A stretch of DNA of 64,000 bases, taken from positions 64,001 to 128,000 of the forward strand of contig JAUVXV010000008.1 of assembly GCA_030603365.1 (NCBI GenBank), in the 5' to 3' direction. The notes beneath the pieces are model-generated. The model did not search any database, had not been told where the DNA came from, and saw nothing but the letters and a program-made list of their open reading frames with translations. Origin of the DNA: Candidatus Heimdallarchaeota archaeon (lineage in GTDB: Archaea > Asgardarchaeota > Heimdallarchaeia > Heimdallarchaeales > Heimdallarchaeaceae). Shown piece after piece: positions 4,791 through 12,165 of this stretch (its first letter is position 1; the number at the start of each line of letters is the position of its first letter). Position numbers and translations under genes: made by a program.

Positions 4791-5684
4791 ATGTCAGAAG
4801 AAGACAAAGTTCCCAAAACAGCTCTAAATCTAATGTTGGAATTAATTGTGGGTAGGAAAAAAGAACTCAAATTGATGATTAGAGCAGTTGAAAAAGGTTT
4901 ACCAATCATTATTGAAGGACCAGTGGGGACAGGAAAAACAGAAATGGCTAAAGCATTAGCCAGCAGTCTCGACAAACTATTCGTCCGAGTTGATGGGGAT
5001 GATAGTCTTACATCCATTAAACTGAAAGGTTGGTATGACCCTCCTCTTGTTATAGAAAAAGGTTTTTCTAGAGAAACTTTCATTCCAGGCCCATTAACCC
5101 AGGCAATGGAAGAAGGAGGGATTTTCTTCTATAATGAAGTTAATAGAGCCCCCTCAGAAACAATTAATGCAGTGTTAACAGCTCTAGATGAGAATCTTAT
5201 TACTATTCCACAGTTAGGAGAGATAAAAGCCAAAAAAGGTTTCATTTCAATTTTCACTTATAATCCACAAGATACTGTTGCTACCAATCCTTTGCCCAAA
5301 GCATTCTATGATAGATGTGTATGGATCAATGTTACTCATCAAACTTTAGAGGAAATGCTACAGATTGTTAAATTAAGAACAAATTCAGAAGATTCACTTC
5401 TTAATCAAATCTCTTGCGAAATTGTTGAAGCTACATTGAATCATCCTGAACTTGAATATGGTTCAACAGTAAGAGGAGCTATTCAATTAGTAAGTCTTTT
5501 ACTAGGAGAAGAGAAACTAGAGGAAGAAATCCTGATTACCTATGTAATTTCAGTTCATTCGAGAAAAATACGGTGTAAAACAACAAGTCGAAAAACAGAG
5601 GAAGAAATAATCATTGAAATCGTTTCAAAGATATTGTCAAAGTATGATGATAACGATAGAATTTCACGAAAAAAAGAGAATTAG
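4791..5684 (+). CDS. MoxR-family AAA+ ATPase
   Basis: Walker A GPVGTGKT, FIPGPLxxAM, Walker B region FFYNEVNRA, LPKAFYDR. Confidence 0.88.
   Translation: MSEEDKVPKTALNLMLELIVGRKKELKLMIRAVEKGLPIIIEGPVGTGKTEMAKALASSLDKLFVRVDGDDSLTSIKLKGWYDPPLVIEKGFSRETFIPGPLTQAMEEGGIFFYNEVNRAPSETINAVLTALDENLITIPQLGEIKAKKGFISIFTYNPQDTVATNPLPKAFYDRCVWINVTHQTLEEMLQIVKLRTNSEDSLLNQISCEIVEATLNHPELEYGSTVRGAIQLVSLLLGEEKLEEEILITYVISVHSRKIRCKTTSRKTEEEIIIEIVSKILSKYDDNDRISRKKEN
5669..5675 (+). other. Candidate -1 ribosomal frameshift (or transcriptional slippage) heptamer A_AAA_AAA linking MoxR and VWA ORFs
   Basis: CGA AAA AAA GAG AAT TAG ends MoxR. The -1 frame (AAA AAA AGA GAA TTA GGT GAC...) has no stop through ATG 5753 to 6709. 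Confidence 0.55.
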
Positions 5685-5752
5685 GTGACCTTATTTCTTC
5701 CATTGTAGGGGATGAACCTTTTCTTACTTTTCCTTCCAAGCATGCAGGCAGA

Positions 5753-6709
5753 ATGCTTCTTAATGAGATATATTTAGAGCTAGGAAGGCAAGTTGAAGAT
5801 ATTACGAGAATTATTGAATTAGCTGAACAAGCCGCAGATGAAGCAAATTTAGAAGGTCTTCAGTTAATTGCAACCAATTATCCCCTAATTGCTGCACAAA
5901 TCCTTAACAAAATAGAATTAACAGAACAAATGCTAGATGATTTAGGTAGTGATGAGCTAATCCAGCTTTATTCTCGAACTAAGAAACATCTTAATTTTGG
6001 AATTCGGAAAAAAATGCTAGATAAATTAATACCATTTATAACAGAAAAGGCTAAATCAATTTTCAGAAGAGGGATATCATCTTCAGTTTCTAGATACATC
6101 AATTATGAACCAGGAGATTCTTGGGAAGTAGAGATGACAATTGAGAAGATGTTAGGTCTAGGAAAAACATCTCCAGATTATGAAAGTATTGTAGTGAAAG
6201 AACCTTCCAAAAGGAAGAAGAGTATTGTAATATGTATCGATAGAAGTATGAGTGTTCTTCAGCTCATCCACCAAATTGTACTCATGGCATCAGTTCTTTC
6301 TCTTTCAGTAAAACGAGATAATTTTGCAATTATTGAATTTGATTCTCAAGCTCATGTTATCAAGAGTATGTCAGAAGGTATCCATCCAGAAGCACTTGTG
6401 GAGCTGATCTTAAACATAGACAGTGGAGGAAAAACAAATCTTGAAGAAGCTTTGAGTTTAGCAACTGAACAATTGAAATTTAGCACTTCTAGAGAAAAAA
6501 TAATCTATCTGATAAGTGATTTGGAAAGAACAGCGGGAAGAAACCCTTTACCCATCATTCAGAGAATACCCGATTTGCGAATAATCTATGTAAAGACCTA
6601 TCGAAGAGTTTCGTTTGTAGATGAGGTAGTAACCCTATCCAATGTTTCTTTTGAAGAGTTGAACCAGAATTCAGATTTGGTGGATATTACAACTAGGTTG
6701 GTTGCTTAG
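5753..6709 (+). CDS. von Willebrand factor A (VWA) domain protein, MoxR partner; frame is open from 5660
   Basis: MIDAS DRSMS, GGKTNL and LISD motifs; directly downstream of MoxR. Confidence 0.88.
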   Translation: MLLNEIYLELGRQVEDITRIIELAEQAADEANLEGLQLIATNYPLIAAQILNKIELTEQMLDDLGSDELIQLYSRTKKHLNFGIRKKMLDKLIPFITEKAKSIFRRGISSSVSRYINYEPGDSWEVEMTIEKMLGLGKTSPDYESIVVKEPSKRKKSIVICIDRSMSVLQLIHQIVLMASVLSLSVKRDNFAIIEFDSQAHVIKSMSEGIHPEALVELILNIDSGGKTNLEEALSLATEQLKFSTSREKIIYLISDLERTAGRNPLPIIQRIPDLRIIYVKTYRRVSFVDEVVTLSNVSFEELNQNSDLVDITTRLVA

Positions 6710-8042
6710 GCTTCTTCTTATTTTGCAGATGAGCTAATATCTGATCAGCCACTATCATCGCAACACCAATTCCATCAAGAATTCCTCCTTCTATTTGAGC
6801 TATATCTCTGTTCATTACATAACTAATAGTAATTTTAGCGTTATATATGTAAGACTCTGTTAAATTCCATTCATCTACAAGAGTTATCAGATATATTATA
6901 GTCGTTTCTTCAGTTGCATTGAAAACTAGTGTTGTTCCATTTAGTACTTCTTCATGTATAAATCTTAATTCAAAGTAACTCTCTTGTTTAGTTTGATTTA
7001 CAAGAGAGAAATACGAACTTAACAGCTGATTATACGTTATATTCCCCGCATAATATACCTGCGTAAGGTTATCAAAATCAGTAAAGAAATTGATGAAGGT
7101 GTTATTATTTGTTAACATAACAGAGGCATTATATTTTATCAAATCCATCGCACTACTAAATTTAACAGTAGTACTTGCGTGGGTTTTACTCTCAATTATC
7201 ACACCAAGCGTTGGATCAAATATCGTCTGCGTACTTCGATATCGAGATGAAACATTATATTTCATCTCCTTGTCATTACCAACTATAGGGCCTAGTAAAA
7301 GACCTACGAAAATGACAAACAAGCCAAGAAGTGTTAAATGTCTTTTTAGCCTCCCCCAGAATGTTTTGAAAACCAAATTGAATCGCTTTTTATCAGGTTT
7401 TTCTTTCTTACTTTTTCTTTTGAAAGCCGGTATAACAAATACAATGAACCAAACAACAAATAGAATTACGTGTAATGTAAATTGAGCGATGTATAGATCA
7501 ATATAATCCCCGTATATTGCTTGACGTTGTTCTTGTGATAAATTGATGAAATAGATTTGCTGTCCTTCACTTAGTGAGTATATCGTCCAATCTGGAATTA
7601 TTCCTACAAGAGTTAATGGGAAGAACAACCAAGATGCATTTTCAAACCTGAGATAGATAGAAAGGTCATAAAGATTAGGATCTACTGGCCAGAAAAGCAA
7701 AAGAGGCCCCCAGCTCAAATCTAGAAATATATGAATTAACCACATTAAAGATACAAGTTTTACAAATCTGACTATTCGTTTAGTAGGGGTATCTATAAGA
7801 TTGACATCTTTATTTACTTTTTCAATAATTAACATACTGAAAATAATAAATGTTGGGATAATCAGACTATGAGTGTAGGAACGATGCGAACCAAAAAACA
7901 AATCGATATCAGGAAACATCGCAAATAAACAGATTACAATATATTCCCATCGGTGTTCTTTGTAGTAATTTTTATTCTCTTTAGATAGAAGCATCCATAC
8001 AATTAAACCTTGTAATGATAAATGTGTAGGAGTATATGTCAT
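6693..8042 (-). CDS. YdjM-like membrane metal-dependent hydrolase fused to an extracellular domain
   Basis: H...PDID...HRSYTHS...HIFLD metal motif set; several TMs; sequon-rich C-terminal region and a terminal TM. Confidence 0.75.
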   Translation of the reverse strand: MTYTPTHLSLQGLIVWMLLSKENKNYYKEHRWEYIVICLFAMFPDIDLFFGSHRSYTHSLIIPTFIIFSMLIIEKVNKDVNLIDTPTKRIVRFVKLVSLMWLIHIFLDLSWGPLLLFWPVDPNLYDLSIYLRFENASWLFFPLTLVGIIPDWTIYSLSEGQQIYFINLSQEQRQAIYGDYIDLYIAQFTLHVILFVVWFIVFVIPAFKRKSKKEKPDKKRFNLVFKTFWGRLKRHLTLLGLFVIFVGLLLGPIVGNDKEMKYNVSSRYRSTQTIFDPTLGVIIESKTHASTTVKFSSAMDLIKYNASVMLTNNNTFINFFTDFDNLTQVYYAGNITYNQLLSSYFSLVNQTKQESYFELRFIHEEVLNGTTLVFNATEETTIIYLITLVDEWNLTESYIYNAKITISYVMNRDIAQIEGGILDGIGVAMIVADQILAHLQNKKKPKQPT

Positions 8043-8211: not shown

Positions 8212-11200
8212 ATGGTCATCGATATGCAATCTAGTCCTAGTGAGAGGTTTAGGGAGTTCCTACAAGCCTATCAAGACGAAAACGGAAGACACATCTATAT
8301 TGAACAAGTACAAAAAATGTCTTTAGAAGGACTAACTTCTCTTTATGTTAACTACGATGATTTATTACGTTTTGACCCGGAAATTGCTAGAAATTTGAAA
8401 GAAGATCCTGAAGAGACTATCAAAGCAGGAGATGATGCTCTTATAGATGTTCTAAAAATCGAAGACCCAGTGTATGCATCAAGTGGAGAAGTTTTCCATA
8501 TACGTATTTCAAACATTCCTGATCAAGTAGATTTACGAAGACTAAGATCTGTTCATCTGGGTGAGCTAATCTCTGTTGAAGGAATAATCATACGTCAAAG
8601 TGTTGTCAAACCTTTACTTATCCAGGGTGTTTTTCAATGTGTGCGATGCGGTGAAGTTCATTACATTAATCAAGAAGGTGGATACTACTCAGAGCCTACT
8701 AAATGTGTCAATCCTAACTGTGGAAAAAACGGTCCTTTCTCACTCTTAACAGAGGAATCAACCTATACAGACCTGCAAACGGTTACCGTTCAAGAAAAAC
8801 CAGAAACGCTCCCTCCAGGACAGATACCACGTTCGGTACCCGCTAGACTTGTAGGAGATCTTGTAGATACTGTAAGAGCAGGTGATAGAGCTATTGTTGC
8901 TGGAATTCTGCGAATGAAAGTTAAGGGAAAACAAAGGGGGAAGCTAGCTACTTTTGATCCATGGTTGGATGTGAATTATGTTTCCTCTCGAGAAAAAGAA
9001 TATGAAGATATTGATATAGATCCAGATACTGAACAGGAAATACTAGACATTTCCACCGATATAAACGTTCATAGAAAAATAATCAGATCTGTTGCGCCTT
9101 CAATTTACGGAATGGAAGTTATTAAAGAAGCTTTAATAACAGTGCTTTTTGGAGGAGTTCACAGAGTCGCTCCTGATGGTATGAAACAGAGAGGAGAATC
9201 CAACTTATTAATGATAGGAGACCCTGGAGTAGCTAAATGTGTAAAACCAGGAACAGAAGTTGTTCTAGAGAATGGTGAATTGAGAAAAATTGAGGATATA
9301 GTTGAGGAAAAACTACAATCCAACTCACACAAAGTAGATGATGGCTTTTATGCAACTGGAGAACAACCGATATTGACTATGAATAAGAGTGGTAAAATCG
9401 AAACAGCTAAGTCAAACCTCTTCTGGAAAAGAACTGCTCCCAAGTTAATGTATAAAATCAAAACAGCTTCTGGAAGAGAGATAACAGTTACACCAACTCA
9501 TCCATTTTTTGTTACAGAGAATGGGTATATTCAATCAAAAGAATCCCAGAAAATTAAGGTCGGAGATTTTATTGCTACACCTCGAATCATTACTGTAAAA
9601 GCAAATGAGAACTTAGATATTGATGTAAAAAAGGGACGAACAAGTGCTCAACACATATCTCTTCCAACAGCTGTAACCAAAGAATTAGCTTGTTTCTTAG
9701 GATATATATGTGGAGACGGGTATGTTCAAAAATCAAAATCATCAAGATATACGTGGTTTACTAATACTGATCATATAATCATCAATGATTACATCAAGTG
9801 TCTTACAGGTTCTTTTGGTAATATTAAGTATACAATTCGAGATGGTAGAAAAGGAAAAAGAGCAAAAGATATCTATGTGTCATCCATAGAATTAGGTAGG
9901 TTCTTGGAAAAAGTATCTCCTTCATTTTATGAGGGTGCACTAAATAAAATAATTCCACCAATTATCATGAGGGCTCCAAATTCAGTCATCAAAGAGTTTG
10001 TGAGAGCTTACTTCAATTTAGATAGTACAGTTAGTAAAGAAAGATGCACAATTTCAGCTACTTCTTCAAGTGAAAAACTTCTAAAAGACATGCAATTTCT
10101 ACTAACAAGGTTAGGAATTATTTCTCAAATTGGTTTTACACACTCTAAAAGTCAAACTTCACCAAAAAGGAAATATTATAGATTGAAAATCACTTCATCT
10201 GAACAATTTCAGAGATTTAGAGAAATTATTAGCCTAGACTCGTACAAAGGGGAGAGACTAAAGAAGGAAAAGAAATCAAATACAAATCAAGATATTATAC
10301 CAGGAGTAGGAGAGTTACTTAAGAAGATTCGTAACTCATTGAATTTATATCAAAGACAAATGGGAATTACCAGATCTACATATCAGCACTATGAAAGGGG
10401 AGATAGAAATCCTTCAAGAAAGTCACTGAAAATTATTGTAAACGAGCTGAAAAATCATACGATTTCAGAAGATATTGAAAGATTGGAAAAACTAGTACTA
10501 TCTGATATTTTTTGGGACAGAATTCTAAATATTGAAAAAATCAAACCTGAATTTGAGTGGGTTTATGATTTACAAGTACCAGATACCCACAATTTCATCG
10601 CAAATGGTATTATAATACACAACAGTCAACTCCTGCAATACGTATATAGGCTAGCTCCAAGAGGACTTTTAACTTCTGGTAAAGCAAGTTCAGCCGCAGG
10701 TCTTACAGCTGCTGTGATTCGGGATCCAGAGACAGGAGAGTTTGGTTTAGAAGCTGGTGCTTTGGTACTAGCAGATAGGGGAGTTTGTTTGATCGATGAA
10801 TTTGATAAGATGAATCCAGTAGATAGGTCCTCCATTCATGAGGCGATGGAACAACAATCTTATCATCCAAGTTTTGAAATTTCTCTCTTAAACGGTCAAA
10901 AACGACAAATTGGGAAATTTGTAGATGATCTATTCAATGATAATAATGAAATTAAAATCAAAGGTAAAGACTGTGAAATTCTTTCAGTAGAAAATCTTGG
11001 TTTCAATGTTTTAACTACAGATTTCAAGAAGATTTATGATACAAAAGTAAATCGAGTTAGTCGTCATATGGCTCCTGATAACTTTGTTAAAATTAGTTAC
11101 TCAAACAATTCAGAAATAATAGTAACTCCTGAACACCCGATTTATGTGATTCAAGAGGGGGAGATAATTACTCTCGATGCTGAAACTATAAATGTGGGGA

Positions 11201-12165
11201 TGTATGTTCCAAGTGAATCAAACAATCATTTAGAATTAGAGAAAATAAAAATATGTAATATAGAGATTCTGAAAAATGATGGTGATCTAAAAACTAAATG
11301 GGTTTATGATGTTACAATTGAACCAACAGAGAATTTCATATCTCATGGACTTGTTCTTCACAACACAGTAAGTATAGCCAAAGCTGGTATTGTCGCTACA
11401 CTCAATGCACGTGCGGCTATTATTGCAGCTGCCAATCCTCGTTTTGGTCGTTATGAGGATACTCGTCCCCCCGTAGAAAATATTAACCTTCCATCTACAA
11501 TCTTATCGAGATTTGATTTGATTTTTGTCATAAAAGATGAACCTGATGAAGACATTGATCGCAAGATGGCTAGACACATTTTAGAGCTTAGAAGAGGTCA
11601 TGTACTTGAGGAAGCTGAACCTCCGATATCAATGGATATTTTAAGAAAATACATAAGCTATGCTAAACAACATGTTGAACCCTCTCTTACTGATGAAGCA
11701 ATGGAGAGAATAGAAAAATTTTATCTTGACTTAAGAAAAGAAACTGATGATACAACTGCTATAGCTATTACTCCACGATATCTTGAAGCAATCATTCGTT
11801 TGTCTGAAGCTCAAGCGAGGATGGCTCTGAAAGAAGATGTAACTATAGACCATGTAGAAGCAGCAATAAACCTTCTCAAAACATCTTTGGAGCAAGTTGG
11901 AAAAGACCCTGTAACTGGTCGAGTTGATATAGATTTCATTCTATCTGGAACAACCAAATCTTCAAGATCTAAGATGCAAACAATCATTGACATTATCAAA
12001 GAAGAGTCAAAGCTAGGAAGTTCTGACATCGTATCTGTAAAGAAGGTCAAAGAGCTGGCTAAAGAGCAGAATGTAGAAGAAGACTTTGTTGACAAAGTAA
12101 TTCTTCAGCTTAAAAGTAACGGAGAGATCTATACTCCTCGAGATGGTTTTGTCAAACTAGCCTAA
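8212..12165 (+). CDS. mcm: MCM replicative helicase with two inteins (about 686 aa after splicing)
   Basis: Zn finger CVRC..CVNPNC, GDPGVAK|SQLL Walker A, LIDEFDKM Walker B, AMEQQ|TVSIAKAG, SRFDL arginine finger, C-terminal wH. Confidence 0.97.
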   Translation: MVIDMQSSPSERFREFLQAYQDENGRHIYIEQVQKMSLEGLTSLYVNYDDLLRFDPEIARNLKEDPEETIKAGDDALIDVLKIEDPVYASSGEVFHIRISNIPDQVDLRRLRSVHLGELISVEGIIIRQSVVKPLLIQGVFQCVRCGEVHYINQEGGYYSEPTKCVNPNCGKNGPFSLLTEESTYTDLQTVTVQEKPETLPPGQIPRSVPARLVGDLVDTVRAGDRAIVAGILRMKVKGKQRGKLATFDPWLDVNYVSSREKEYEDIDIDPDTEQEILDISTDINVHRKIIRSVAPSIYGMEVIKEALITVLFGGVHRVAPDGMKQRGESNLLMIGDPGVAKCVKPGTEVVLENGELRKIEDIVEEKLQSNSHKVDDGFYATGEQPILTMNKSGKIETAKSNLFWKRTAPKLMYKIKTASGREITVTPTHPFFVTENGYIQSKESQKIKVGDFIATPRIITVKANENLDIDVKKGRTSAQHISLPTAVTKELACFLGYICGDGYVQKSKSSRYTWFTNTDHIIINDYIKCLTGSFGNIKYTIRDGRKGKRAKDIYVSSIELGRFLEKVSPSFYEGALNKIIPPIIMRAPNSVIKEFVRAYFNLDSTVSKERCTISATSSSEKLLKDMQFLLTRLGIISQIGFTHSKSQTSPKRKYYRLKITSSEQFQRFREIISLDSYKGERLKKEKKSNTNQDIIPGVGELLKKIRNSLNLYQRQMGITRSTYQHYERGDRNPSRKSLKIIVNELKNHTISEDIERLEKLVLSDIFWDRILNIEKIKPEFEWVYDLQVPDTHNFIANGIIIHNSQLLQYVYRLAPRGLLTSGKASSAAGLTAAVIRDPETGEFGLEAGALVLADRGVCLIDEFDKMNPVDRSSIHEAMEQQSYHPSFEISLLNGQKRQIGKFVDDLFNDNNEIKIKGKDCEILSVENLGFNVLTTDFKKIYDTKVNRVSRHMAPDNFVKISYSNNSEIIVTPEHPIYVIQEGEIITLDAETINVGMYVPSESNNHLELEKIKICNIEILKNDGDLKTKWVYDVTIEPTENFISHGLVLHNTVSIAKAGIVATLNARAAIIAAANPRFGRYEDTRPPVENINLPSTILSRFDLIFVIKDEPDEDIDRKMARHILELRRGHVLEEAEPPISMDILRKYISYAKQHVEPSLTDEAMERIEKFYLDLRKETDDTTAIAITPRYLEAIIRLSEAQARMALKEDVTIDHVEAAINLLKTSLEQVGKDPVTGRVDIDFILSGTTKSSRSKMQTIIDIIKEESKLGSSDIVSVKKVKELAKEQNVEEDFVDKVILQLKSNGEIYTPRDGFVKLA
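9238..10623 (+). mobile_element. Intein in the MCM Walker A site (462 aa) with LAGLIDADG homing endonuclease and an embedded XRE-type HTH
   Basis: Starts C(VKPGT); block B TPTHPF; LGYICGDG and RAYFNLDS motifs; LKKIRNSLNLYQRQMGITRSTYQHYERGDRNP HTH; ends WVYDLQV...IIHN followed by Ser. Confidence 0.93.
10858..11364 (+). mobile_element. Mini-intein (169 aa, Ser-start, no endonuclease) in MCM at MEQQ|TVSIAK
   Basis: Starts SYHPSF; block B TPEHPI; ends WVYDVTIEPTENFISHGLVLHN followed by Thr. Confidence 0.92.

Follow-up and report, generated by a model that had tools for sequence, protein, structure and literature searches.

The window (the whole 64,000-nucleotide stretch of Candidatus Heimdallarchaeota DNA that was analysed) carries on its forward strand a MoxR-class AAA+ ATPase ORF at 4791–5684, recognized from the ORF list, its translation and an AAA_5 match (E 2e-21), whose 297-aa product is closed by a zero-frame TAG at 5682–5684 and whose 3′ end reads CGA AAA AAA GAG AAT TAG. 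Within this ending lies a slippery heptamer, A_AAA_AAA (5669–5675, +), in X_XXY_YYZ register, two codons upstream of the stop and where the 0 and −1 frames overlap; the −1 frame is bounded upstream by a TAG at 5657–5659, opens at 5660 and, by sequence, ORFs and translations alike, runs without stops to 6709. Next come an 8-nt spacer (5676–5683, +), invariant in length in the alignment of family orthologues and within the 5–9 nt expected before a −1 frameshift stimulator, and a hairpin (below). A −1 slip would join 295 residues to a 344-aa extension (5675–6709, +), in which translation and Pfam place a linker, a helical domain and a VWA domain, for a computed product of 639 aa. The first ATG of the −1 frame (5753–5755, +), 68 nt beyond the stop, is probably an internal Met codon; it is not conserved and is absent in relatives L012, L013, L015, L026 and L027. 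We think it quite likely that a single gene is decoded here in two ways, as a 297-aa ATPase and, after a −1 slip, as a 639-aa AAA+-VWA fusion.

The original prediction had described the same 3′ end, A7 register, −1 opening, 68-nt gap and product sizes, and all of these agree with the sequence, ORFs and translations. It had also seen no initiation signals in the gap, which is right in that no in-frame start codon follows at Shine-Dalgarno (SD) distance and wrong in that an SD-like AGGTGA is present at 5683–5688. The seven A's on which the prediction depended are confirmed by a contig from an independent sequencing run, which spans 5589–5837 with two substitutions and no gap; the A7 is thus not an assembly slip, with the reservation that this evidence is a contig and not raw reads. 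A promoter and terminator scan, which models bacterial promoters only, gave counts at chance level.

How unusual is such an arrangement in this genome? An end-proximal heptamer combined with a long −1 frame occurs in only six of its 2836 stop-free frames of at least 150 codons, and two of these six are the window locus and a second MoxR-VWA paralogue (L104; G000:C14:26453–28218, − strand), which has T_TTT_TTC directly before the stop and a VWA reading frame at −1. Among the six, the window locus alone also has the kink-turn motif described below; none was found at the C14 paralogue. The heptamer and −1 frame of the window locus are more than a chance arrangement.

The same layout persists in clade A (clades are defined below), where a −1 offset and a slippery heptamer are present in 46 of 46 orthologues from two Heimdallarchaeia families; the labels of close relatives read Ca. 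Heimdallarchaeota or Heimdallarchaeaceae. Within the family of the window locus, every one of the 26 loci that could be scored has A_AAA_AAA_G, the −1 offset and the 8-nt spacer, at ATPase identities of 64–86%, and 20 orthologues in family f5 have A_AAA_AAH and the −1 offset. Since these relatives are kin and not independent samples, the counts measure persistence and are not a p-value. RNA structure accounts for most of the conservation of the gap peptide.

That RNA structure, supported by motif, covariation and RNAalifold, is a kink-turn hairpin at 5684–5718 (+) that starts directly after the spacer. It is composed of an NC stem (GGU/ACC, 5684–5686/5716–5718), tandem GA (5687–5688 and 5714–5715), a C helix (5689–5694/5705–5710) and a GAU bulge (5711–5713), all on the + strand, and their order, GGU-GA-(C helix plus loop)-GAU-GA-ACC, is the standard kink-turn pattern; the sequence criteria for a standard kink-turn (a 3-nt bulge then tandem G·A/A·G, with C and NC helices) are met. 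Across 20 aligned sequences 91.5% of cells pair, against a maximum of 58.5% in slid controls, and five pairs have changed on both sides; the C helix covaries, and the NC pairs, being invariant or wobble, are uninformative in this respect. RNAalifold recovers the same 2 × 5 internal loop unprompted. Single-sequence folding gives about −8 kcal/mol with z near 0 (range +1 to −2.8), which is not significant, as expected for a kink-turn, so the analysis leans on covariation. An imperfect hairpin at about 5683–5719, 7 nt past the heptamer, had been drawn previously; a covarying structure does exist there, but it is a kink-turn with slightly different limits, a 2 × 5 loop and 8-nt spacing. A box C/D guide RNA was considered and rejected, since the NC stem is GGU/ACC and not CU/UG and the hairpin has no Rfam match at E ≤ 1; an upstream ATGATGA (5644–5650) that could be read as part of a box C/D element is not conserved.

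The same kink-turn was found in 56 distinct sequences from many families, with its GA 5, 8 or 11 nt past the heptamer and with inner hairpin lengths of only 16, 19, 22, 25 or 31 nt, so that the frame is always kept. When the search was run without a bulge filter the bulge was GAU or AAU in 56 of 61 elements. Some clade-B kink-turns have a poor NC stem, and most loci of family f5 have instead, equally far from the heptamer, a plain GC-rich hairpin. In family f14, 16 of 28 loci allow a kink-turn with reversed polarity to be drawn at this position; this is weaker evidence, because the search picked the best among several GA positions. No kink-turn was found at the bacterial loci.

A MoxR AAA+/VWA pair is an AAA_5/AAA_3 ATPase adjoining a MIDAS-bearing VWA, and the window proteins meet this definition: Pfam assigns AAA_5/AAA_3 to the ATPase and VWA_2 (E 1e-10) to a VWA domain at 6224–6520 (+) with the MIDAS motif DRSMS at 6239–6253. 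The ATPase has Walker A GPVGTGKT (4917–4940, +; translation and alignment) and, by alignment, a variant Walker B, IFFYNE (5121–5138, +), with Asn in place of the usual Asp; this hhhhNE form is nearly invariant across clades A and B, the canonical ending being DE. The predicted structure of a natural fusion (pLDDT 79) contains the AAA+ module, a disordered linker at the point of the shift, a helical domain and the VWA domain, and the best structural matches of the fused-homologue model are NorQ and CbbQ. As modelled, the AAA+ module is NorQ/CbbQ-like and not a chelatase. Identity with the frameshifted chelatase fs-chlD was rejected on its TIGR02031 score of 25.9 bits against a cut-off of 499.6, and CobN/ChlH (PF02514) was not found in the genome (89% complete). 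A special link to Midasin was likewise rejected, as its top rank sums repeats and no single domain of it exceeds 37 bits, below the 47 bits of NorQ.

A quick tree divides the homologues into three recoded clades, A, B and C, and one control clade. Clade B, from many Asgard families, contains 70 loci with a −1 offset and a heptamer (U_UUU_UUH, A_AAU_UUY, G_GAU_UUU or related, GGA and AGA having been accepted as XXX in this count), 12 loci with a +1 offset and 5 fused genes; clade C contains 7 loci at −1 and 3 fused. Family f14 supplies 26 further loci, all at −1, one of which overlaps the earlier set; its loci L244–L269 have a near-invariant TAATCGATGA directly 3′ of (G)GATTTT. The heptamer is absent from all six of the divergent AAA/long-VWA control pairs. 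The 12 loci with the +1 offset all carry an in-frame UUU_UUU_CGN no more than 30 nt from the stop, compared with 15 of the 2833 ORF ends of this genome and 0 of 135 −1 loci; influenza PA-X and the amalgaviruses use UUU_CGN for their +1 shift (PMC3498833, PMC5052127). As every +1 locus has UUU_CGN instead, the offset switches only along with its motif. The candidate +1 frameshift loci, with the motif at the AAA+ ORF end, are L121, L124, L126, L127, L129, L131, L132, L143, L162, L163, L167, L181 and L240, from four Asgard families. A VWA start codon of its own is not excluded in family f6, since most f6 loci have an ATG 10–13 nt 3′ of the stop. Homologues labelled Ignavibacteriales, Bacillota and Nitrospirales have the −1 offset and an A run at a GC content of about 60%, and one unlabelled −1 locus (L228) is without a heptamer. 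In several Asgard families a genome carries two or three such paralogues, and annotations throughout split the locus into two genes. Judged from these comparisons, the putative frameshift signal is phylum-wide in Asgard archaea and is also present in some bacteria.

Natural in-frame fusions number 31 and are 581–623 aa long. One of them, P0003, contains within its continuous reading frame the peptide encoded by split relatives in the −1 frame; its cluster is mostly split, with fused members rare, and P0003 could be an assembly variant. The fusions from Thermoproteota and P0004, known from three records, are safer examples. Five genomes of family f24 have only a fused gene at E 1e-40, so the free subunit may be non-essential in places. 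A further state occurs in genome G031 (contig C74, L103), where a free ATPase gene lies directly upstream of a fused 643-aa gene whose Walker A and Walker B motifs are degenerate.

The proposal that the MoxR/VWA pair is joined by a programmed −1 frameshift is supported, then, by heptamer, offset, fused homologues and 3′ structure: the same heptamer and offset recur in orthologues, in-frame fusions exist, and the structure is conserved by covariation and RNAalifold. Varying offsets without a conserved signal would have counted against it, and the loci that do vary carry a +1 slip motif. The suggestion that a MoxR gene follows chelatase recoding logic also stands, as fs-chlD logic in another AAA+/VWA family, the NorQ/CbbQ-like one, with its role in ring stoichiometry an inference. 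The identity of the kink-turn, the phylum-wide spread and the reach into some bacteria had been missed.

Most ribosomes would halt at the TAG at 5682–5684 and free the 297-aa MoxR AAA+ subunit, and a fraction would slip −1 on A_AAA_AAA with two lysine tRNAs to make the 639-aa AAA+-linker-helical-VWA protein. The hairpin 8 nt 3′ of the heptamer is presumably the barrier that provokes slipping. That ribosomes do slip here is very likely, in our estimation, though inferred without expression, ribosome-profiling or proteomic data. Most likely the two products would join in one NorQ/NorD-like ring bearing a few tethered VWA domains, and a minority of tethered subunits is a sensible inference, since NorQ hexamers engage VWA through the pore (PMC13036017); for an inferred mixed ring with a set subunit ratio our judgement leans only slightly to the favourable side. 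In favour of this explanation, the heptamer gave 10% shifting in chelatase cassettes in E. coli (PMC3711429); against it, neither A_AAA_AAA nor the hairpin is strong when taken alone.

Could a protein supply what site and hairpin lack? The window kink-turn has A:U at 3b:3n and G:C at −1b:−1n, and these, together with a GAU bulge, block folding in ions alone (PMC6298567). As a kink-turn of this type is predicted to be unfolded without protein, L7Ae probably stabilises the hairpin at the mRNA entry channel. L7Ae is encoded in this genome, around G000:C1:260590, and an l7ae leader (L204:1415–1447 in G000:C1) has a kink-turn over its SD with compensatory changes in relatives (L270–L274), which suggests that L7Ae may autoregulate its own mRNA in Heimdallarchaeia; together, the gene and the covarying leader make L7Ae binding to mRNA kink-turns plausible in this lineage. 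Binding of L7Ae to the 5684–5718 kink-turn is probable, though an inference with no binding data behind it, and the further inference that L7Ae stimulates frameshifting is one on which we are nearly evenly divided, inclining a little against. L7Ae is not universally needed, given the plain GC hairpin of f5 and the lack of a kink-turn in the C14 paralogue and the bacterial loci. A broader reading, tentative as a whole and put by us just under an even chance, is that L7Ae, bound to the kink-turn, acts in trans to stimulate or tune frameshifting on a cellular mRNA, sets the ratio of free to tethered subunits across Asgard archaea and ties the AAA+ motor to the free L7Ae pool, and that lineages have swapped the device for a plain hairpin, a reversed kink-turn, a UUU_CGN +1 site or a fixed fusion. 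Searches of the literature, with partial coverage, gave no title or abstract that treats kink-turn, L7Ae and frameshifting together.

The frameshift may also be real with no role for L7Ae, the hairpin being an ordinary stimulator whose kink-turn either forms with Mg2+ or does no more than shape the stem. This is quite possible, if not our choice: the f5 plain GC hairpins serve at the same spacing, and many clade-B kink-turns have C:G at −1b:−1n with C at 3b, a combination that folds in ions alone (PMC6298567). However, the kink-turn signature is kept in many families and in both polarities even though a bulged stem is inferior to a perfect one, and the window kink-turn has both features that block ion-only folding. 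A reading without any recoding has two separate genes, with VWA translation initiated independently and the L7Ae-bound kink-turn masking the SD-like GGUGA as a translational switch, on the model of the l7ae leaders. It draws on the AGGTGA noted above, on the ATG at 5753 that most family members have and on the relative (L018) whose ATG overlaps the stop. We regard it as decidedly improbable, as the SD-like word is 65 nt from that ATG, four relatives (L013, L015, L026 and L027) lack any ATG, GTG or TTG in the stretch from the heptamer to the conserved VWA N-terminus, the −1 offset is fixed with the heptamer in register and indels that keep the frame, and the +1 offset comes with UUU_CGN at every locus against its low background.

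Errors in the message or in the assembly can be weighed by the same comparisons. Transcriptional slippage would add one base at the A run in some mRNAs, and the 9–10 consecutive A's of L218–L222, part of clade C, would suit it; the seven A's of the window fall under the reported threshold, which is above 7 for A and above 8 for T (PMC3711429), and many homologues have codon-phased heptamers that are not homopolymers, with 3′ structure at ribosome spacing, which makes this a very remote prospect. Homopolymer runs are error-prone and the evidence consists of contigs, so an assembly error or pseudogene must be mentioned; it is refuted, to the point of being negligible, by conservation, by the recurrence of the same break at more than 140 loci with different heptamers, and by the independent contig without an indel.

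The nearest precedent for programmed −1 slippage at such a locus is fs-chlD (PMC3711429, PMC9227772), where a single gene yields both a short AAA+ protein and a long AAA+-VWA protein by a −1 (sometimes +1) shift, with AT-rich slip sites, 3′ structure and fused forms; L103, with its separate small-subunit gene beside a fused gene, likewise resembles chlI plus chlD (PMC9227772). Unlike fs-chlD, the window gene has a NorQ/CbbQ-like AAA+ module in a genome with no CobN/ChlH found, and no kink-turn stimulator for fs-chlD was found in the available parts of Antonov 2013 (PMC3711429) and Kuznetsov 2022 (PMC9227772). NorQ/NorD and CbbQ/CbbO (PMC13036017) share the MoxR AAA+ fold and a MIDAS VWA partner, which the known hexamer engages, but they are two genes with a free VWA, whereas here the VWA would be tethered by recoding and Walker B is NE. 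The l7ae 5′-leader kink-turns (Huang, Ashraf and Lilley 2019, PMC6298567) are similar in GAU bulge, tandem GA, weak stem and predicted need of L7Ae for folding, but block initiation at the SD, whereas the window kink-turn lies within translated sequence, 3′ of a slippery heptamer. An RNA-protein obstacle 3′ of the slip site, inferred here, is used by cardioviruses and arteriviruses (PMC5472766, PMC6735917), with viral mRNA and viral proteins, where the Asgard case would involve an archaeal gene of the cell and a ribosomal protein with a housekeeping role. Another archaeal −1 shift at an A-rich heptamer is that of Saccharolobus fucA1 (PMC1616953, PMC8211752), but it is strain-limited with one functional product, whereas the Asgard locus is phylum-wide with two plausible products.

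A 2021 review lists fucA1 as the only experimentally reported archaeal case (PMC8211752); archaeal programmed frameshifting stood on that one cellular gene and the chelatase prediction. With partial coverage of the literature we found no paper on programmed frameshifting in archaeal MoxR and nothing relevant on ribosomal frameshifting in Asgard archaea. The Asgard locus adds a phylum-wide candidate with natural −1, +1, fused and duplicated states to compare and a short, testable cassette. If true, the one-gene-two-subunits solution would be general to AAA+/VWA machines and not special to chelatases, and if the kink-turn acts via L7Ae, it would be a protein-stimulated frameshift in a cellular gene driven by a ribosomal protein; the fold directly behind the slip site is a hint of such a protein-assisted slip, which is not known to have been described in archaea.

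Gene neighbourhoods in Asgard archaea are not conserved and point to no client. The homologues L211, L219, L225, L226, L227, L228 and L208, which are non-Asgard or unlabelled, adjoin genes of cobalamin enzymes (corrinoid protein, MtmB, URO-D/MtaA-like, and B12-binding plus MutL), a hint, and a lead only, that the client could be a corrinoid protein. Beside the window locus itself, a 449-aa YdjM-domain membrane protein is encoded on the opposite strand (6693–8042, −), overlapping the VWA stop by 17 nt. At 8212–12165 lies a 1317-aa MCM helicase that, from translation only, apparently contains two inteins, inserts bounded by C...HN and Q...HN.
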